A stretch of DNA of 64,000 nucleotides. Origin: an uncultured Eubacteriales bacterium. Lineage in GTDB: Bacteria; Bacillota; Clostridia; Oscillospirales; Oscillospiraceae. The stretch covers positions 22,727-86,726 of the forward strand of contig UQZJ01000001.1 in assembly GCA_900545495.1 (NCBI GenBank). Reading direction: 5' to 3'. The notes under the pieces were generated by a model. That model was not told the DNA's origin. It searched no databases and worked only from the letters and a program-made list of their open reading frames with translations. Below are positions 47,133 through 54,261 of the stretch, one piece after another. The position numbers and the translations under genes are program-made. Position 1 is the stretch's first letter, and every line of letters begins with the position of its first letter.

Positions 47133-47433
47133 AATACTTGCTCCTTTCGTCAGTGCGGTAAACACAGGGTAGGGTCGGGGAGCGGGTTCCCTTTATCCTT
47201 GTGTGCATTATAGCAAATCGCAATACGTTTGAAAAGCACTTTTGAGAGAATTTGTGAAAACTTCATAAAGAGTTTATCATTCAGACACATTCGACAGGCT
47301 GCCCTAAAAGTCGCGGTAAACCGGCAAAACCTCCTATTTACACGGGGACAGGCGTGCTGTATGATGATAGAGGAAGCTTTCCAATATCCCACCCGCTTGG
47401 GCCGCTCTGCTTGCAGGGCGGCCCCTTTTTTTG

Positions 47434-47462
47434 TGAAAAAGAGAGACGGCGCATCGCCGTCC
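47434..47462 (-). terminator. Terminator of the DUF2207-like / rSAM operon
   Basis: GACGGCG-atg-CGCCGTC followed by TCTCTTTTTC on the minus strand. A second GC hairpin (47398-47423) sits beside it. Confidence 0.6.
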
Positions 47463-47470
47463 CTCCTGTT

Positions 47471-48562
47471 TCAGGTATCCAATTTTTCGGAAAGCGCCTT
47501 GTCCAGCCGCACCGCGCCGTAGAGATTTTTGGCCGAGCAGCCCGCCCGTCCGCCACCGGCACAGGCGCAGGCGCAGGCACAGGCACAGCTGCTGGCGCAG
47601 GCGCAGTGTCCGCCGCCGCCGAAGCCGCCGCCGCCAGACCCACCGCCGCGGCTGCCGCCGCCGAAGCCGCTGCTACTGCTGCGGGGCGGGCGGGGCCGTT
47701 TCTTGGTGCCAACGCTGCCGGGACGGGGCTTGCCGTCCCGTCCGGCGGGGTACCAGAGGTGGTTGACGAACACATACCGCGTGCCGAAGCCGCCGGCGTA
47801 GCCGCCAGCTATCTCCCGAATGATCCGCACCACCACCCAAACGATAAAGATGGTGATGATCAGCGTCAGGAACAGGGCGGCCATGCCTATGTCCTCGTCC
47901 TCGTCGTACCAGTCGTCATAGTCATTGTCGGGCTGGCTGCCGATGCTGTTCTCCGGGGACAGCACGGTGGGCCAGTCGGTGTAGCGCACCTTCACGTTCA
48001 TCTTGTAGCCGTAGGACTGGTCGGAGGCGGTGATGGTCAATCCATCCGCCACCGTCACGCTGTCCGCGCCGGAAACTGTCCCCTCGGTGAAGTCGCCGGT
48101 CAGACCGGCGGGGTCGTGCCACGTCAGGGTCATGGCCCCCATCTTGGCCTCGTCGAACCATCCGGGGGTGTAATCGTAGAGCACCGCGCCGCCGTCCAGC
48201 CCGTACATATACTCCTGCACCCAGCGATAGGAGAACGTAAACGTCTCGTTTTTCTTGTAGGCGCGGTCCAGATAGATGTACATATAGCGGTTGTCGAAGG
48301 ACAGGCGCTCGATGTTGTCGGTCAGGGCGGTCTTCTCCCGGATGGAGCCGTTGGGGATGCCGACCTTCAGCTCCTGCCCGTAGGGCAGCTCCTCCAGCGC
48401 CGTCCACGTCAGGGAGACGGTGATGGTCAGGCTGCCGTCGTCGGTGTTGGGCAGCACGTCCACGTCGTAGCGGTCGATGTAGTCGTAATCTGCCCATGCA
48501 ATGGCGGTGCAGCACAGCGCCGCCAGCACCGTCAGCAGCAGGATATGCAGCTTCTTCAGCAT
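47471..48562 (-). CDS. DUF2207-like membrane protein with a Gly-rich region and a unique C-terminal (Cys-Ala)n tail
   Basis: AGGGAGGAGGGGG RBS. Signal peptide MLKKLHILLLTVLAALCCTAIAWA. About 250 aa extracellular domain, one TM helix (IGMAALFLTLIITIFIVWVVV), then a cytoplasmic tail ...SSSSGFGGGSRGGGSGGGGFGGGGHCACASSCACACACACAGGGRAGCSAKNLYGAVRLDKALSEKLDT. Its start overlaps the rSAM stop. Confidence 0.7.
   Translation of the reverse strand: MLKKLHILLLTVLAALCCTAIAWADYDYIDRYDVDVLPNTDDGSLTITVSLTWTALEELPYGQELKVGIPNGSIREKTALTDNIERLSFDNRYMYIYLDRAYKKNETFTFSYRWVQEYMYGLDGGAVLYDYTPGWFDEAKMGAMTLTWHDPAGLTGDFTEGTVSGADSVTVADGLTITASDQSYGYKMNVKVRYTDWPTVLSPENSIGSQPDNDYDDWYDEDEDIGMAALFLTLIITIFIVWVVVRIIREIAGGYAGGFGTRYVFVNHLWYPAGRDGKPRPGSVGTKKRPRPPRSSSSGFGGGSRGGGSGGGGFGGGGHCACASSCACACACACAGGGRAGCSAKNLYGAVRLDKALSEKLDT
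47557..47610 (-). repeat. In-frame hexanucleotide repeat (GGCRCA)n encoding the Cys-Ala repeats
   Basis: Plus strand reads GGCACA GGCGCA GGCGCA GGCACA GGCACA GCTGCT GGCGCA GGCGCA. Confidence 0.85.
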
Positions 48563-49941
48563 CGCGCCCCCTCCTCCCTGTTGCCGCCTTGCAGCTGGCA
48601 AATATGGTCCATTTTGGCACTCTCCGCCCGGATGGCGGCGCAGCGTTCGCTGTTCCAGACGGACGCCCAGTCGTCGGTGAGCATATTGCCCAGCGGGGCG
48701 CTGCTCAGCCAGCTCTGACAGGGGATGATGCTGCCGTCCGGCGCCAGCGCCATGTTGCTCAGGCAGGCGCCGCAGCTGGGGATCAGGTGCAGTCCCAGTG
48801 CGCGCAGCGTCTCCTCCGGCAGCCAGCCGGGGCTGGTGAAATCCAGCTCCATGCCCAGCTCCTCCACCACGGCCGCCGCCTCTTGCAGCACCTGTGTCAG
48901 CGCCTGCTCCGTCAGACGGGTGGCGCGGCTCTCCGCGCCCTCGGCGCTGCCGGAGGGGATCAGGCCGGAGCAGGTGGCGTACCGCACACCCAGAGACGCG
49001 GCAAAGCGCAGCGTGGCGGCATAGTCCGTGTTCAGGCTGCACAGCGGCGTGTTCACGGAGACGATCAGCCCCGCTGCCACGGCGTTTCGGATGCCCTGCA
49101 CCGTCTTTTCAAAGCCGTCGGCGCCCACCAGCGCGTTGTGGATGGCCGGGTCAGCGCTGTACAGGGTGACCTGCACGCTGTCCAGGCTTGCGCCGTACAG
49201 CTTGGCGCACAGCTCCGGCGTCAATAGCTGGCCGTTGGTGTTCAGCCGGGTGACGAACCACTGGGCGGCGTCCACCAGCTCCACCAGATCGGCGCGGAGG
49301 GTGGGCTCGCCGCCGGTAAACGTGACCTGCGGGATATTGGCGCTTCGCAGGCGGCGGAGGATGTCCAGCCACTGCTGGGTGGACAGCTCCGGCGCGTCCG
49401 CCAGCGACTGCCCCGCAGCGTAGCAGTGCAGGCACTTCTGGTTGCAGTGCCACGCGCCGTCCTTGCGCATGGCGCTGAGCATCAGATCCATGCGGTGGGG
49501 CGCCGTCATCTCGGCGGCATAGTCGCCCAGCGACAGAACGCCCACCTCCGCCTCCGGCTCCTGTCCCCGGGCGATGGCCACCAGCGAGGTGAGCATCAGG
49601 GACAGATCCTCCGCCAGCTCGGTCTTTTTGGTGAACGGATAGGTCTTGTGTGTCTCCGCCACGGCGGCGTCCGCCATAGCGCGCCAGTCGGACTCGCTGA
49701 TCTCCAGCCCGGCAAAGGGCTCCAGCCTGTCCATAAAGTTGGCCAGCAGAATGGCCCACGACAGGTTCAGCGGTACCAGCTTGTCGCCGTTGAGCAGCAG
49801 CAGAAACGGCGCGTCCGGCGCGTCCTCCCGCGGGGGGATCATGTGGATGCGGACAGCGCCGCGTCCCTTGGGGTCTAATGTAATGTGCCGCACGCAGCGC
49901 AGGTGCTTCCGGCGATATCGCTGCTCCAGAAAAGTGGGCAT
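48556..49941 (-). CDS. Radical SAM / SPASM-domain enzyme with N-terminal PqqD-like RRE domain (RiPP-maturase architecture)
   Basis: GGGAGG is 7 nt upstream of the ATG. N-terminal ~100 aa form a PqqD/RRE-like domain (FLLLLNGDKLVPLNLSWAILLANF). CX3CX2C motif CNQKCLHC, GGEP motif TGGEPTL, and C-terminal Cys-rich SPASM/twitch segment (CGACLSN...PCQSW...RCAAI...HIC). Confidence 0.8.
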   Translation of the reverse strand: MPTFLEQRYRRKHLRCVRHITLDPKGRGAVRIHMIPPREDAPDAPFLLLLNGDKLVPLNLSWAILLANFMDRLEPFAGLEISESDWRAMADAAVAETHKTYPFTKKTELAEDLSLMLTSLVAIARGQEPEAEVGVLSLGDYAAEMTAPHRMDLMLSAMRKDGAWHCNQKCLHCYAAGQSLADAPELSTQQWLDILRRLRSANIPQVTFTGGEPTLRADLVELVDAAQWFVTRLNTNGQLLTPELCAKLYGASLDSVQVTLYSADPAIHNALVGADGFEKTVQGIRNAVAAGLIVSVNTPLCSLNTDYAATLRFAASLGVRYATCSGLIPSGSAEGAESRATRLTEQALTQVLQEAAAVVEELGMELDFTSPGWLPEETLRALGLHLIPSCGACLSNMALAPDGSIIPCQSWLSSAPLGNMLTDDWASVWNSERCAAIRAESAKMDHICQLQGGNREEGARC

Positions 49942-49976
49942 AGGCAAGCCTCCCTTCCATGCATTCAGATGCGTAG

Positions 49977-50005
49977 AGTATACCACAGGCATCGGCGGAT
50001 GGCAA
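49977..50005 (-). promoter_or_regulatory. Strong sigma-A promoter of the rSAM operon
   Basis: Minus strand reads TTGCCA, 17-nt spacer, extended -10 TGgTATACT. It lies just downstream of the divIC terminator. Confidence 0.65.
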
Positions 50006-50046: not shown

Positions 50047-50340
50047 TCAGTCGTTGACGTCGTAGAAGATACGCTCGCCATCCTCGGCCAGACCCAGCAG
50101 GTCGCGGGCCAGCGCCTTGATGAACTCCGGGTCGTCCTTCTTGCTCAGATCAGAGCGGAGCGCCTCGTTGGCCTGTGCTTTCTCCTGCATCTGCTGGGTG
50201 AGGGCCGCCTCCTGCGCCCGCACATCCTTCAGCCGCCCGTAGACGTTGATGATCTCCACGCCCACCACCACGATGAGCACGCTCAGCACCAGCAGCAGGA
50301 CAGCGCTGGGCTTTTTTTTGCGGGCCTTTTTCTGCGCCAT
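50047..50340 (-). CDS. divIC: Septum formation initiator (FtsB/DivIC family)
   Basis: GGGGGAGG RBS. Basic N-terminus, one TM helix, then a coiled coil (LKDVRAQEAALTQQMQEKAQANEALRSDL). Confidence 0.8.
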   Translation of the reverse strand: MAQKKARKKKPSAVLLLVLSVLIVVVGVEIINVYGRLKDVRAQEAALTQQMQEKAQANEALRSDLSKKDDPEFIKALARDLLGLAEDGERIFYDVND

Positions 50341-50812
50341 GTCTGTCCTCCCCCTTTCGCGGCCCTTTTGACCGCATTCGTACCTTTATTGTAGCGCAGG
50401 CGCGGCGAAAAGGAAAGTGTTTTTTCAGGAAAATGGCGGCTTTTTTCAGCCACCGGACGGCGATCACCGCCGGACAGCACAGCAGACGGCAGAACTGCAC
50501 CGCCGCGTCCAGCCAGAAATTCCACAGCGGACGCAGCAGCGGCGGCAGCGTCAGCCCGTACAGCACCGCGCCCAGCGCCACGCCGGTGAGCATATACAGC
50601 CGCAGCTCCCCCTCCCCGATGCGCAGGGTGAACCACAGCAGCAAAAGCCCCAGCACGGTGATATACAGACCGTCGGCAAGGCCGGTGAGACGCCGGTCAC
50701 GGCGGCGGCGAAGCCGCACGGCGCGCAGCAGGTCATAGACCATGGCGGAGGCTGCGCCCAGCAGCGCCGCCGTCAGGTAGGCGGTCAGCTGTTGGGAGAC
50801 ATGATTTTCCAT
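50150..50812 (-). CDS. yabQ: Spore cortex protein YabQ-like membrane protein (3' end uncertain)
   Basis: Follows yabP with a TGAnATG junction and has multi-TM hydrophobic segments. The ORF as called runs 190 nt into divIC in another frame, so the C-terminal ~60 codons may be a high-GC read-through artefact. Confidence 0.5.
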   Translation of the reverse strand: MENHVSQQLTAYLTAALLGAASAMVYDLLRAVRLRRRRDRRLTGLADGLYITVLGLLLLWFTLRIGEGELRLYMLTGVALGAVLYGLTLPPLLRPLWNFWLDAAVQFCRLLCCPAVIAVRWLKKAAIFLKKHFPFRRACATIKVRMRSKGPRKGEDRHGAEKGPQKKAQRCPAAGAERAHRGGGRGDHQRLRAAEGCAGAGGGPHPADAGESTGQRGAPL

Positions 50813-50813
50813 A

Positions 50814-51101
50814 TCAGCCGAACAGCCGGGACAGGAACGACCCCTGCCGCACCTCCGTGTCCTCGTAGGTCACGGCGTCGATGCGGCCGTCCACCTGCAT
50901 CTCGCCGCCGTCCAGCGACAGCTTGCCGATATGCAGCTCCTCCCCGGTGATGATGAGCGTGCCGGCGCTGGTGGTGGTGACGATGCAGCTCTCGTCAAAG
51001 CGCACCACATCCTCCACGCCGGAGATGCTCAGCTTCTCCCGCCCCTCGATCTGGAGGCGGTGATAGGCGGCGGCGCCGCCGTCGGTCATGTCGTAAGGCA
51101 T
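50814..51101 (-). CDS. yabP: Sporulation protein YabP
   Basis: 95 aa. Conserved YabP core LSISGVEDVVRFDESCIVTTTSAGTLIITGEELHI. Confidence 0.85.
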   Translation of the reverse strand: MPYDMTDGGAAAYHRLQIEGREKLSISGVEDVVRFDESCIVTTTSAGTLIITGEELHIGKLSLDGGEMQVDGRIDAVTYEDTEVRQGSFLSRLFG

Positions 51102-51158
51102 AAAAAAGCGCTCCCTCCCACAGAGTTTTCACTCCATCGTATGAGGGAACGCCCGGTA

Positions 51159-51422
51159 TTATGACAGTTTGTCCGGCTGAGGCGCGGCCTCGCGGTACAT
51201 GGCGGCCGCCGCGTCCTTGCCCACGTTCTCCGTGACGCTCAGCACCTCCACCGTCAGGGTGTTCTGGCCGAAGCGGATGGAGATGACATCGCCCACCTTC
51301 ACATCGTAGGATGCGCGCTGCACCCGACCATTGACGGTGACGCGCTCGTTGTCGCAGGCCTCGTTGGCCACGGTGCGGCGCTTGATGAGGCGGGACACCT
51401 TCAGATATTTGTCAAGACGCAT
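51159..51422 (-). CDS. S4-domain RNA-binding protein (YabO / Hsp15-like)
   Basis: MRLDKYLKVSRLIKRRTVANEA... is an S4 fold. Same position as yabO in Bacillus. Confidence 0.8.
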   Translation of the reverse strand: MRLDKYLKVSRLIKRRTVANEACDNERVTVNGRVQRASYDVKVGDVISIRFGQNTLTVEVLSVTENVGKDAAAAMYREAAPQPDKLS

Positions 51423-51485
51423 AGGATTCCTCCTTAAAACGGTAAAGGAGCCGGTGTGGTCACACCGGCTCCCGTGAAAGCAAAA

Positions 51486-51761
51486 TTACTCCGCGACGGC
51501 GTCCTTCAGAGCCTTGCCGGCCTTGAAAGCGGGTACCTTGGCGGCGGGGATCTCCACGGTCTCCTTGGTACGGGGGTTCAGACCGGTACGGGCGGCGCGC
51601 TTCTTGGTCTCGAAGGAGCCAAAGCCCACCAGCTGCACCTTCTCCTCGGCCTTCAGCGTCTCGGTGATGGTCAGCAGCGTCGCATTAACGGCGGCCTCGG
51701 TGTCCTTCTTGGACAGGCCGGTCTTCTCCGCCACAGTGGCGATCAGTTCGGTTTTATTCAT
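51486..51761 (-). CDS. hup: DNA-binding protein HU
   Basis: [32 protein letters not shown]... with the conserved arm [18 protein letters not shown]-like sequence. The upstream in-frame extension is spurious. Confidence 0.9.
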
Positions 51762-51837
51762 GATACTTCCTCCCAAAAATTCATTTGTTGACGCCGTTCC
51801 CCTCCGGGCGGCGTATCTCAAAACGATCGAGATCGCA

Positions 51838-52626
51838 TTAAGAACGTTTTGCTTCGTTCCACAGGGCGGTCATCTCCTCCAGCGACAGCTGGGAGACCTC
51901 CCTCCCCTGTGCCGCCGCACCGTTCTCCACGGCACGAAAGCGGCGGATAAATTTTTCGCAGGTGCCGTTGACCGCGTCCTCCGGGTCGCAGGCGCAGAAC
52001 CGCCCCACCTTTACGGCGGCGAACAGCACATCGCCCAGCTCCTCCGGCACGTCGCCGTCTTCCTCCACGGCGCGGCGCAGCTCGGCCACTTCCTCCTCCA
52101 GCTTGTCCAGCGCGCCCTGTACATCCGGCCACTCGAAGCCGGCGGACGCCGCCTTGTTCTGGAGCTTTTCAGCCCGCCAAAGACCCGGCAGGCTCCGCGC
52201 CACACTGTCCATGCTGTCGGCCACGGTCTTCTGACCCTTTTCCTGCCGCTTCAGCTTGTCCCAACTGACAAGCACCGACTCGGGCGAGTCCTCGCGCTGG
52301 CTGCCGAACACATGGGGGTGGCGGAACAGCAGCTTCTTCACCACGCCGTCGCACACGTCGTCTATGGTGAAGCGTCCCGCATCGGACTCGATGTCCGCGT
52401 GGAACACCACCTGCATCAGCACGTCGCCCAGCTCCTCCTTGAGAAGCACGGGGTCGTCGTTGTCGATGGCCTCGGCGGCCTCGTAGGCCTCCTCCAGCAA
52501 GCCGCGCCGGATGGGCTGGTGGGTCTGCGCCTTGTCCCAGGGGCAGCCGTCCTCCGAGCGGAGCAGGCGGATGATCTCCAGCAGATCCTCGTAGCCATAC
52601 TGCGGTTTCCTAACAAAATTTATCAT
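51838..52626 (-). CDS. mazG: MazG nucleoside triphosphate pyrophosphohydrolase
   Basis: Two EExxE-type MazG motifs ([30 protein letters not shown]). Confidence 0.85.
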
Positions 52627-52674
52627 ACTTATGCTCCTATTGCAAGAGGTTTTCGCTTTGCCAACCCCAAAAGT

Positions 52675-54261
52675 TCAGCGCAAATGCAGTATTTCCGCGA
52701 TTTTCTCTCCCTTGGGCAGGCCAATAACGTCAGCCCGCGTCACCGCGCCCAGCGCCAGCGCCAATATGCCGTAGACCACGGCGGCGATAAGGATGGCGGG
52801 CAGCACCGCCCAGCGCTCCGGCAGGCAGCGCACCAGCACGCCGTAGGACGAGCGGGCGGCCAGCGCCATCACCGCCGTGATGAGCAGCGGCTTGGCAAAC
52901 AGGTGGAGGTAGGCAGGGCGCTCCGGCACACAGCGGGCGATGGCGATGAGGTTCAGCACCACGATCAGGGCGTAGCAGTACAGCGTGCTGACCGGCGCGC
53001 CCCGGACGTTGGTGGCGGGGTCGCCCACCATCAGGTAGTTGGTGACGATCTTCAGGACGCCGCCGCACAACAGGGTAAAGACGGGGATGTACTCCTTGCC
53101 GTAGGCCTGCAAAACACCGTTGGTGGCCACCATCAGGCACACGAAGATACAGGCAAGGCCCAGAAAGGTCAGGTGGTAGGCGGCGGCCTCGGCGGTATCC
53201 GGCACCGCCGGGTACAGCAGGTGCAGGATGGGCCCGGCCAGCACGGACAGCCCCGCCCCGGCGGGCAGGGCGACGAGGGTAGTCAGCTTCAGGGCAGCGG
53301 CGGTACTGCGTCCCGCGGCGGCGCGGTCGCCCCGGGCCAGCGCGTCGGCGATATCCGGCACCAGACTGACGGTGACGGGGTAGATAAAGGACGGCGGCAG
53401 GACGAACAGCGTCATACCGAAGGTGTACTCGCCGTACAGGGCGCTGGCGGCGGCCTCCGTATATCCCAGCGTGTTCTGGAGGGTGGACATGACCAGCGCC
53501 TGATCCAGCAGGGTGATGAGGCTCATGCCCGCCGCTCCCAGCGTGATGGGGATCCCGGCGGTCAGCAGCTCACGGAGGATCTCGCGCCGCGCAGGCGGCC
53601 GGTCGAAGGCGGCGACGCGCTCCCGCCGGCGCAGGAGAAACACCGCCAGCACCGTCAGCGACAGCAGGGAGCCGGCGGTAACGCCGGCAATGGCCCCGGC
53701 GGCGCACAGTGAGGCGTCCGCGCCCCGGCGCAGCAGCAGCAGGCACAGGGCAAGGCCGATGACCAGCTTTCCGGCGGACTCCGTCATCTGGCTGACGGCG
53801 GTGGGCGTCATGTCGCCCAAGCCCTGCGTATACCCCCGGATGGCGGAGGTCAGGCAGACGAACAGCACCGCCGGGCCGAGGACCCGGATGGCGGGCGCGG
53901 CCAGCGAGTCGTGGAGCAGGCCGCTGAGCACCTGTGGAAACAGGCACATAACGGCGCTGCACACCGCGCCGATGACGGCCAGCAGCGCCAGCGCCGTCTG
54001 GAAAATGCGGCGCTGGGCGTTGCGTCTGCCCTGCGCCGCTGCGCGGGATACCAGCCGGGACAGCGCCAGCGGCAGTCCTGCCGTGGACAGCACCAGCAGC
54101 AGATTGTAGATGTTATAGGCGGCGTAGAAGTGGGCCATGCCCTCCTTGTCCAGCAGGTTGCCCAGTGGGATCTTGTAGAGGGCGCCCAGCACCTTGGTCA
54201 CCGCCACGGCAAAGGCCAGCACAGCGGCGCCGCTGATAAAGTTGTGCCGTCGCTGTGCCAT
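52675..54261 (-). CDS. MOP-superfamily oligosaccharide flippase (SpoVB/YabM-like polysaccharide biosynthesis protein)
   Basis: 528 aa with about 14 TM helices. It sits with mazG/yabO-Q as yabM does in Bacillus. Confidence 0.7.
   Translation of the reverse strand: MAQRRHNFISGAAVLAFAVAVTKVLGALYKIPLGNLLDKEGMAHFYAAYNIYNLLLVLSTAGLPLALSRLVSRAAAQGRRNAQRRIFQTALALLAVIGAVCSAVMCLFPQVLSGLLHDSLAAPAIRVLGPAVLFVCLTSAIRGYTQGLGDMTPTAVSQMTESAGKLVIGLALCLLLLRRGADASLCAAGAIAGVTAGSLLSLTVLAVFLLRRRERVAAFDRPPARREILRELLTAGIPITLGAAGMSLITLLDQALVMSTLQNTLGYTEAAASALYGEYTFGMTLFVLPPSFIYPVTVSLVPDIADALARGDRAAAGRSTAAALKLTTLVALPAGAGLSVLAGPILHLLYPAVPDTAEAAAYHLTFLGLACIFVCLMVATNGVLQAYGKEYIPVFTLLCGGVLKIVTNYLMVGDPATNVRGAPVSTLYCYALIVVLNLIAIARCVPERPAYLHLFAKPLLITAVMALAARSSYGVLVRCLPERWAVLPAILIAAVVYGILALALGAVTRADVIGLPKGEKIAEILHLR

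Follow-up and report, generated by a model that had tools for sequence, protein, structure and literature searches.

A radical SAM/SPASM enzyme linked to a membrane protein with a Cys-Ala tail: a candidate enzyme-substrate module in gut Clostridia

Radical S-adenosylmethionine (SAM) enzymes of the type that mature RiPPs (peptides made by the ribosome and then modified post-translationally) have been studied almost exclusively for the small secreted peptides that they make. This report concerns a gene pair that points to RiPP-type machinery on a full-length membrane-anchored protein. The pair lies in a 64,000-nt stretch of contig UQZJ01000001.1 from an uncultured Oscillospiraceae bacterium (the whole stretch is called the window here). 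It consists of a gene for a radical SAM/SPASM enzyme followed by a gene for a membrane protein that ends in a tail of alternating Cys and Ala. The pair had been noticed in a preliminary description made from the letters of the window alone, and that observation is confirmed.

The closest described maturases, SkfB, CteB, and SuiB, have a common three-domain plan: an N-terminal RiPP recognition element (RRE), a radical SAM core, and a C-terminal twitch/SPASM domain with auxiliary clusters; in CteB and SkfB, Aux I has an open coordination site (PMC6231123). A described case with a protein target is QhpD, which makes several intramolecular Cys thioether links in QhpC, the gamma subunit of quinohemoprotein amine dehydrogenase. 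QhpD is used once per substrate, the modified QhpC goes on to serve within a protein and is not secreted as a natural product, and the two share an operon (PMC7876137).

How does the window pair compare? Like the sactisynthases and SCIFF maturases (SkfB, AlbA, CteB), the window enzyme shows a three-domain plan, with SkfB as its best match in both sequence and fold, and its presumed target is Cys-rich and encoded beside it. However, the identity is only ~22% and the NCBIfam scores are far below the cut-offs. In contrast to sactipeptide and ranthipeptide systems, a 363-aa membrane protein that lacks an N-terminal leader supplies the candidate substrate, which is its C-terminal tail; in the core of this tail Cys and Ala alternate and obvious acceptor side chains are missing; and the module has no protease, exporter, or immunity gene. 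A short leader-bearing precursor, which those systems carry beside the enzyme, is absent from the cassette. QhpC, in turn, is a small soluble subunit with Asp/Glu acceptors, and its N-terminal leader of 28 residues is cleaved off later, whereas the window target is membrane-anchored, has its conserved motif C-terminal to the Cys tract, and has no Asp/Glu acceptors within that tract.

Other enzymes resemble the window enzyme in part. SuiB aligns over the full length of the window enzyme's structural model (430-452 columns), and WgkB is among the best NCBIfam matches (E 5e-24), but at 85 bits against a cut-off of 650 and over the generic core only. By likeness to these enzymes, the conserved K-(D/N)-(F/L)-Y of the window tail could in principle host a Lys-aromatic crosslink, but the tail has no KGDGW-type or WGK-type motif, and the substrates of SuiB/StrB and WgkB are short free peptides. 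As presumed for the window enzyme, the SPASM enzyme anSME targets a Cys within a full-length protein, and it matches in fold (E ~2e-8); anSME has no RRE domain, in contrast to the RRE-like domain of the window enzyme, and its sequence match is marginal (E 2e-4). The same logic, a SPASM-type enzyme genetically locked to a repeat or Cys-rich protein or peptide, is found in three predicted systems, namely HxsABCD with its His-Xaa-Ser repeats, the TIGR04133/TIGR04134 radical SAM-lipoprotein pair, and FibroRumin. These occur in other phyla with different partner architectures. TIGR04133 gives the window enzyme 81.5 bits against a cut-off of 425 and HxsC 56.7 against 268, and TIGR04134 matches weakly in one of 86 diverse members of the membrane-protein family (E 0.0017). 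Some members of that family are also like DUF2207 proteins in having a similar extracytoplasmic N-domain profile, then a span of the membrane and a cytoplasmic end rich in Gly, whereas typical DUF2207 proteins are longer, have several transmembrane (TM) segments, and lack both a Cys-Ala tail and a radical SAM partner. In other words, the module behaves like an RRE-dependent radical SAM peptide maturation system, yet it falls outside the named families tried (sactipeptide/SCIFF, anSME, and DUF2207).

It appears that the best fit to these facts is a two-gene enzyme-substrate module, in which a maturase-type enzyme acts on the cytoplasmic tail and the product stays tethered to the membrane. We give this reading a probability of about 0.6. 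It is favored because a maturase-type enzyme with a putative docking domain is coupled to a gene for a conserved Cys-rich tail, the motif flanking the Cys tract is near-invariant, the linkage of the two genes is near-universal, and the presumed target gene is occasionally duplicated. Thus, the protein-tethered, RiPP-like maturation system of the preliminary description is supported in part: it survived the computational tests that could have refuted it, while we infer the substrate role and the thioether chemistry. Its claim that crosslinking of a tail fused to a membrane protein had not been described needs narrowing, as the crosslinking of a protein subunit by a radical SAM enzyme is already known (QhpD on QhpC; PMC7876137). 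What is new is the membrane-anchored, leaderless context, and not the modification of a protein in itself. No description of the pair was found in the literature searched by keywords and sequence strings. A known enzyme logic is combined here with a candidate substrate architecture (leaderless, C-terminal, membrane-tethered) and a very widespread motif that are both new.

Linkage of the two genes across genomes

The preliminary description had called the pair a two-gene operon on the minus strand, and both open reading frames (ORFs) are found as it described them:

48556-49941, minus strand: radical SAM/SPASM-type enzyme, 461 aa plus stop (Pfam PF04055 and PF13186)
47471-48562, minus strand: type I membrane protein with a single pass (363 aa plus stop); its start and the enzyme stop overlap
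47516-47608, minus strand: Cys-Ala tail core HCACASSCACACACACAGGGRAGCSAKNLYG, residues 319-349, candidate substrate plus docking motif (from conservation)

The genes overlap by 7 nt. As had been claimed, the enzyme stop (TGA, 48558-48556) overlaps the start of the membrane-protein gene (ATG, 48562-48560), in the form ATGCTGA. The cassette is too tight to hold a small ORF, in agreement with the claim that no small precursor lies by the enzyme gene, and the sole adjacent Cys-rich product is the 363-aa membrane protein, so the tail is indeed the only Cys-rich candidate in the operon.

Two samples show how consistently the genes go together. In species-level genomes, where loci were found via the membrane protein, an enzyme homolog (51-98% identity) was directly upstream on the same strand at all 77 loci that have upstream DNA; two further loci are contig-edge fragments. 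In metagenomes, at least 120 loci were found by a DNA pattern for the tail only (CACAGGGRAGC), of which 71 were assessable with at least 1.9 kb of upstream DNA. The enzyme (42-98% identity) was upstream in 67 of these and directly downstream in one, L117. On the question raised with the pair, enzyme homologs accompany Cys-tailed proteins at 77/77 species-genome loci and 68/71 metagenome loci. In each of the three exceptions, the tail gene is a 5'-replaced or truncated copy of one that has the enzyme beside it on a sister contig. L135 has an integrase and a foreign 5' part, but its last 262 residues are 100% identical to the enzyme-linked L141; in L137 the 5' part has been replaced, and 354 residues match L140 at 95% identity; and L186 is truncated. 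When two clades were searched from the enzyme side, the downstream neighbor was always a protein of 362, 424, 432, or 449 aa without a Pfam match, and both neighbors that were translated (432 and 424 aa) have the tail.

Enzyme homologs adjoin tail-bearing genes in Oscillospiraceae, Lachnospiraceae, and other metagenomic clades. In a Lachnospiraceae-type clade the enzyme is ~50% and the membrane protein 28% identical to those of the window; the plan is the same, with a cytoplasmic zinc ribbon and a tail of the form ...SCACASSCACACACASSGRAGCSVKDFF. The genes flanking the cassette differ completely between clades; therefore, the two genes are themselves the conserved unit. In no clade examined does the cassette include a protease, a transporter, or a small ORF, and no second conserved candidate substrate was found nearby. 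The module is present in two cultured isolates, Vescimonas sanitatis MH37-1 (L053) and Brotocaccenecus cirricatena CLA-AA-H272 (L057).

Several loci depart from the usual arrangement. In L117 (5392-7690) the order is swapped, the tail gene coming first and the overlapping radical SAM gene next, the only such case among the 71. L135 (90-2236), with a foreign N-terminus and an integrase-like neighbor, and L137 (371-2065), with a Pro/Glu-rich N-terminus, have no upstream radical SAM gene; their altered 5' parts could reflect either real rearrangement or chimeric assembly. L106 (1-1894) carries two tail genes in tandem, the first cut by the contig start and the second a full 424 aa, each encoding a zinc ribbon and ...CACACACAGGGRAGC[ST]TKDFY. 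This tandem is a duplication of the presumed substrate gene, and it recalls RiPP clusters with several precursors. One metagenome-assembled genome (MAG), UMGS1315, has two cassettes on two contigs (L007 and L036) with different tail-protein sequences; either a second, paralogous copy or contamination of the bin could explain this.

The tail and the membrane protein that carries it

The tail of the window protein reads exactly as first reported, except that its 8 Cys are spread over 23 residues (C320-C342) rather than 20. The CACAGGGRAGC pattern occurs once in the window and in 0 of 100 shuffles. The 31 residues of HCACASSCACACACACAGGGRAGCSAKNLYG are identical in 104 loci, where they are encoded by 89 different DNA versions. 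Third positions vary in 30 of the 31 codons, first or second positions in only 3; therefore, selection on the tail acts on amino acids and not on a DNA repeat. A DNA-level repeat or hairpin as the cause of conservation is ruled out by the same third-position variation. An assembly artefact or frameshift, which had been named as a possible refutation together with orthologs that lack the tail, is ruled out by the 104 loci with identical protein and 89 DNA versions, and orthologs keep the tail.

Conservation extends well beyond the nearest relatives. Among the 120 best listed homologs (56-99% identity), all full-length proteins keep HCACASSCACACACACAGGGRAGCSAKNLYG bar two with single-residue variants, and the other exceptions are three truncated or frameshifted entries. 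Across ~75 species genomes the ectodomain drops to 47% identity while the tail segment is constant except for three single-residue variants. In other words, the tail is the most conserved part of the membrane protein, and few short sequences in this analysis are as strongly conserved as its motif. The family is large, with at least 1904 matches at E <= 0.001 in a word-indexed search and 445 clusters at 50% identity in an exhaustive HMMER search of 1.84 billion representatives (E <= 0.001). Of the best 150 of the 445 representatives, 99 have a G-R-x-G-C core near the C-terminus, the 51 others being mostly fragments or frameshifted calls, and (CA)n-GGGRAGC is present in every full-length member of these 150. 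The family-wide core is CACACAGGGRAGC[ST]xK[DN][FL]Y, that is, (C-A)n-G-G-G-R-A-G-C-[S/T]-x-K-[D/N]-[F/L]-Y, with 4-10 Cys and then 9-35 variable, often Lys-rich residues. The window tail is the Oscillospiraceae version of this core, and the split between N-L-Y and D-F-Y endings tracks phylogeny.

Known motifs do not account for the tail. With ten tail peptides, Pfam at E <= 10 returned nothing, metallothionein families included, bar one spurious match to MoCoBD_1. The FibroRumin Cys-rich RiPP model (NCBIfam TIGR04135) gave non-significant values (E 1.5-3.5); the tails of P0401, P0482, P0483, P0434, and P0394 score ~8 bits against it and resemble it in common Cys-rich composition only. A glycyl-radical site was rejected by inspection, because the spacing of GRAGC does not fit the R-[IVT]-[CSA]-G-Y fingerprint and the enzyme is not a PflA-type activase. 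The anSME target motif C/S-x-P/A-x-R is absent from the tail.

Where does the tail lie relative to the enzyme? The remaining parts of the membrane protein are as follows:

47885-48562, minus strand: signal peptide (residues 1-24) and acidic ectodomain (25-226), from hydropathy and charge; remotely like the DUF2207 N-terminal part
47819-47884, minus strand: transmembrane helix, about residues 227-248, with a Kyte-Doolittle window peak of 2.9; RIIREI comes next
47609-47818, minus strand: cytoplasmic linker, residues 249-318, with conserved GGFGTRYVFVNHLWYPAG.DG.PRPGSVG, a Pro/Arg stretch, and a Gly-rich stretch (from the alignment)
47474-47515, minus strand: variable C-terminal 14 residues (AVRLDKALSEKLDT), not conserved between species

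The signal-like segment ends in AWA. There is one TM helix, the net charge is -24 in the ectodomain, and it is +11 in the C-terminal 115 residues; therefore, the tail is predicted to be cytoplasmic. The earlier placement of the tail on the same side as the enzyme is thus supported by hydropathy and charge. The linker differs by clade, and Lachnospiraceae members have a zinc ribbon there. In L079 (2860-4185), L080 (6398-7696), and L082 (6338-7612) this ribbon, CPGCGx9-10CxYCG, stands between the TM helix and the tail, and the linker is Ser/His/Arg-rich where that of the window protein is Gly-rich.

The preliminary description had called the membrane protein DUF2207-like. Searches of Pfam and NCBIfam with the window protein matched no family, and PF09972 (DUF2207) gave no match even at E <= 10. 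Remote, sub-threshold similarity is what is left of the claim: PF09972 matches weakly in 10 of the 86 diverse family members (best E 1.9e-5), and P0505 reaches 23.0 bits where the cut-off is 24.4. By sequence, then, the link to DUF2207 is a remote similarity and not membership. None of the 86 relatives belongs to a curated family of Pfam or NCBIfam, and ten diverse members carry only the source annotation 'hypothetical protein'. A Pfam match to 'YxzE-like putative bacteriocin' in 4 of the 86 was judged spurious. In P0422, the one inspected, it scores 22 bits against a cut-off of 40 and covers residues 231-290, which are the TM helix and juxtamembrane segment and not the Cys tail, and the tail peptides alone do not match this family.

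These features bear on a model in which the membrane protein is an oversized precursor, whose C-terminal 30-45 residues are cut off as a free RiPP by a protease and exported by a transporter encoded elsewhere. RiPP precursors can be large, and borosins carry the core peptide at the C-terminal end of a full-size enzyme; the tandem tail genes of L106 are like multi-precursor clusters, and the enzyme resembles RiPP maturases. However, in no clade does a conserved protease or transporter accompany the cassette, and the border between linker and tail shows no conserved cleavage-type motif, the linkers being variable and Gly-, Ser-, His-, or Arg-rich. Furthermore, conservation across the family extends to the ectodomain and the TM helix, and a mere leader would not call for this. 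We regard this model as quite improbable.

The enzyme and its candidate action on the tail

The elements recognized in the enzyme are these:

49537-49941, minus strand: N-terminal winged-helix, RRE-like domain, residues 1-135 (alpha, four beta strands, three helices)
49423-49446, minus strand: CX3CX2C motif (C166, C170, C173), radical SAM [4Fe-4S] site, 100% conserved
48559-48780, minus strand: C-terminal SPASM/twitch-like region, residues 388-461 (C390, C393, C408, C434, C448), from the Pfam SPASM match

Pfam assigns Radical_SAM (PF04055) to residues 166-299 (E 8.5e-21, 75.3 bits against a cut-off of 29.5), and the previously reported motifs CNQKCLHC and GGEP are both present. In 128 distinct sequences of 41-98% identity, C166, C170, and C173 of the core and C245, C301, C324, C390, C393, C408, C434, and C448 are conserved. 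The latter eight conserved non-core Cys could hold auxiliary clusters. The claimed C-terminal SPASM-like cluster stands in part. SPASM (PF13186) matches residues 390-449 with 32.1 bits against a cut-off of 21.5, and C393-x9-G403-x4-C408 is the first half of the canonical seven-Cys motif (CX9-15GX4C), but the second half, CX2CX5CX3C, is missing; therefore, the auxiliary-cluster domain is read as SPASM/twitch-like but non-canonical.

To which family does the enzyme belong? An NCBIfam search gave 58 matches, every one far under its cut-off, and the enzyme is therefore in no curated family. The top match was NirJ2 (94 bits against 500), SkfB scored 59 bits against 300 and StsB 53.8 against 625, and the SCIFF maturase, anSME, and QhpD models were not among the 25 best of the 58. 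A firm classification as an anSME-, AhbD-, or HemW-type enzyme, which would have weakened the proposal, was accordingly not obtained. With a profile of 55 homologs the closest solved protein was SkfB (E 2e-16), followed by GDGT-MAS, PqqE, BlsE, MoaA, SuiB, BtrN, CteB, and anSME. An AlphaFold2 model (predicted local distance difference test, pLDDT, 75; predicted template modeling score, pTM, 0.79) gave a similar picture in Foldseek: SkfB was the best match (E 4e-11), followed by SuiB, which aligned over its whole length (E 1e-9), BlsE (E 2e-9), anSME, and PqqE (E 4e-8). An anti-phage viperin-type defense system (PADLOC pVip) was rejected, as only the generic core (residues 165-306) matches and not the full length. 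The tail DNA pattern was not found in viral contigs.

The N-terminal domain had been described as a PqqD-like RRE. Its fold agrees with an RRE, but a sequence-level match to PqqD (PF05402) is lacking in Pfam at E <= 0.1. Residues 1-135 modeled alone (pLDDT 87.5) form a helix, four strands, and three helices, which is the winged helix-turn-helix arrangement of an RRE, a beta sheet followed by three helices. A profile of the domain found nothing relevant among PDB sequences, and Foldseek found no PDB match to the model at E <= 0.001. Fold similarity links the domain to MibB, TbtB, McbB, MccB, PbtF, NisB, and TigE, a radical SAM enzyme; OmpR-type winged helices reach similar scores, as expected from the common fold. 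The model thus supports an RRE fold with moderate confidence, and peptide binding may be the function of this putative RRE.

Could the true substrate be a small peptide or a small molecule from elsewhere, with the membrane protein independent of the enzyme? The lack of a curated-family match leaves the enzyme's substrate formally open, and small-molecule SPASM/twitch enzymes (BlsE, BtrN, MoaA, NirJ) are among its matches. To our knowledge, BtrN, MoaA, and BlsE have no RRE domain, whereas the window enzyme has an RRE-like N-domain. The near-universal linkage, with overlapping or abutting genes and enzymes of 41-98% identity in varied contexts, also argues against independence, as does the striking selection on the tail. 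Such a distant substrate seems the least probable of the alternatives, and a very improbable one.

How, then, would the enzyme act on the tail in an enzyme-substrate module? Its architecture of RRE-like domain, radical SAM core, and auxiliary-cluster region is that of peptide maturases. First, the RRE-like domain would dock on the near-invariant GGGRAGC(S/T)xK(D/N)(F/L)Y segment. The candidate docking sequence for this domain in the window is GGGRAGCSAKNLYG; judged by conservation, GGGRAGCSxK(D/N)(F/L)Y is a better docking candidate than the variable last 14 residues. The enzyme would then cleave SAM reductively and abstract a hydrogen atom in the adjacent (Cys-Ala)n tract. In the least certain step, Cys thiols would be joined to nearby carbons as intramolecular thioether links. 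The analogy with SkfB, CteB, and QhpD makes such Cys-to-carbon links the first guess; the alternative would be other Cys-centered or Lys/Tyr-centered chemistry, and another kind of crosslink could form at the conserved K-(D/N)-(F/L)-Y. Finally, the product would remain on the inner membrane face within the mature protein, since the module has no protease or exporter gene, and would give a rigid structure, sulfur-rich or metal-binding, beneath the DUF2207-like ectodomain. A more specific version is tentative and, in our view, somewhat unlikely: that the tail becomes a protein-tethered, sulfur-rich crosslinked structure, for example a thioether ladder or a new metal-binding/redox cofactor derived from the protein, on the cytoplasmic side of what would be a sensor-like membrane protein.

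Several points weigh against a modified tail. The acceptors between the tract cysteines are limited to Ala, Ser, and Gly. The alternating C-A spacing is unlike known sactipeptide and ranthipeptide cores, and we know of no precedent for it. The enzyme lacks CX2CX5CX3C, having the spaced C434 and C448 in its place. Whether the enzyme also occurs without a tail gene was looked up from the enzyme side in two clades only. The CxC repeats resemble metallothionein-type metal sites, which need no enzyme, and tight linkage fits equally well an obligate complex without covalent modification.

The last two points lead to the main rival, in which the tail is a metallothionein-type metal or Fe-S module and the enzyme its obligate partner without covalent modification. 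For example, the tail might supply or hold a cluster, electrons, or sulfur, or might anchor an enzyme that acts elsewhere. The CxC repeats follow a conserved His, as in metal-thiolate sites, Lachnospiraceae members have a zinc ribbon beside the tail, gene linkage suits a complex as well as a substrate, and an acceptor-poor tract is awkward for crosslinking. However, metal sites usually tolerate change at X positions, and here the Ala positions and GGGRAGCSxKDFY are near-invariant, which suggests recognition by the enzyme. Moreover, the enzyme has an RRE-like domain of the peptide-binding type and a maturase-like fold, the ten tail peptides match no metallothionein family of Pfam at E <= 10, and no second conserved candidate substrate lies nearby. 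A partner role of this kind is unlikely on balance.

If the enzyme-substrate reading is true, the tail would be a new substrate class for SPASM enzymes, possibly with new chemistry, and the module would give the first functional handle on DUF2207-like membrane proteins. It would also mean that genome mining restricted to short precursor ORFs misses such systems. If the tail is in fact crosslinked, this would be a new class of post-translational modification, with RiPP-type machinery building a permanent part of a membrane protein. The family is unannotated, comprises at least 445 clusters at 50% identity, and belongs to abundant human and animal gut Clostridia (Oscillospiraceae and Lachnospiraceae). 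With two genes, a 30-residue target, and cultured isolates, the module is directly testable.

Expression signals and surroundings in the window

The promoter and terminator that had been proposed for the operon were both found again, the promoter with an upstream TG:

49977-50005, minus strand: sigma-70-type promoter-like site, TTGCCA, 17-nt spacer, TG-extended TATACT, 10/12 matches
49949-49958, minus strand: ribosome-binding site GGAAGGGAGG, 7 nt ahead of the ATG at 49941 (from sequence reading)
47399-47473, minus strand: terminator region, a GACGGCG-AUG-CGCCGUC hairpin with a U-run and then a second GC-rich hairpin

The promoter-like site is just downstream of the divIC terminator hairpin (50033-50012); four such sites were seen in the region against 0.6 expected from shuffles. 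The longest enzyme ORF opens at 49992, upstream of the -10 hexamer, and its first ATG sits within the promoter. The start was assigned to M18 at 49941, with GGAAGGGAGG ahead, because the -10 hexamer falls within the longer ORF. This gives 461 aa, which agrees with the length of nearly all enzyme homologs among the 120 listed; one of the homologs, P0124, has 480 aa. Automatic annotation from 49992 could add 17 false residues to the enzyme (49942-49992). After the membrane-gene stop, the hairpin and U-run have a folding energy of -45 kcal/mol (z-score -6.2). The second GC-rich hairpin (47399-47424), with an A-run before it on the minus strand and a T-run after it on the plus strand, looks like a plus-strand terminator, yet no plus-strand gene ends there. 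The gene hpf, which comes next, has a promoter-like site of its own.

The order of genes in the neighborhood is SpoVB/MurJ-like, MazG, HU, S4, YabP, YabQ, DivIC, the enzyme, the membrane protein, HPF, and Fe-ADH. A conserved sporulation and cell-division cluster (50047-54261: SpoVB/MurJ-like, MazG, HU, S4/YabO, YabP, YabQ, DivIC) thus directly precedes the cassette. The context of Lachnospiraceae cassettes is unrelated to this neighborhood. The nearest genome to the window pair is an uncultured Oscillospiraceae MAG (L001), with protein identities of 98% for the enzyme and 97% for the membrane protein. In L078 the cassette is in the same sporulation and division neighborhood as in the window, but inverted relative to it.

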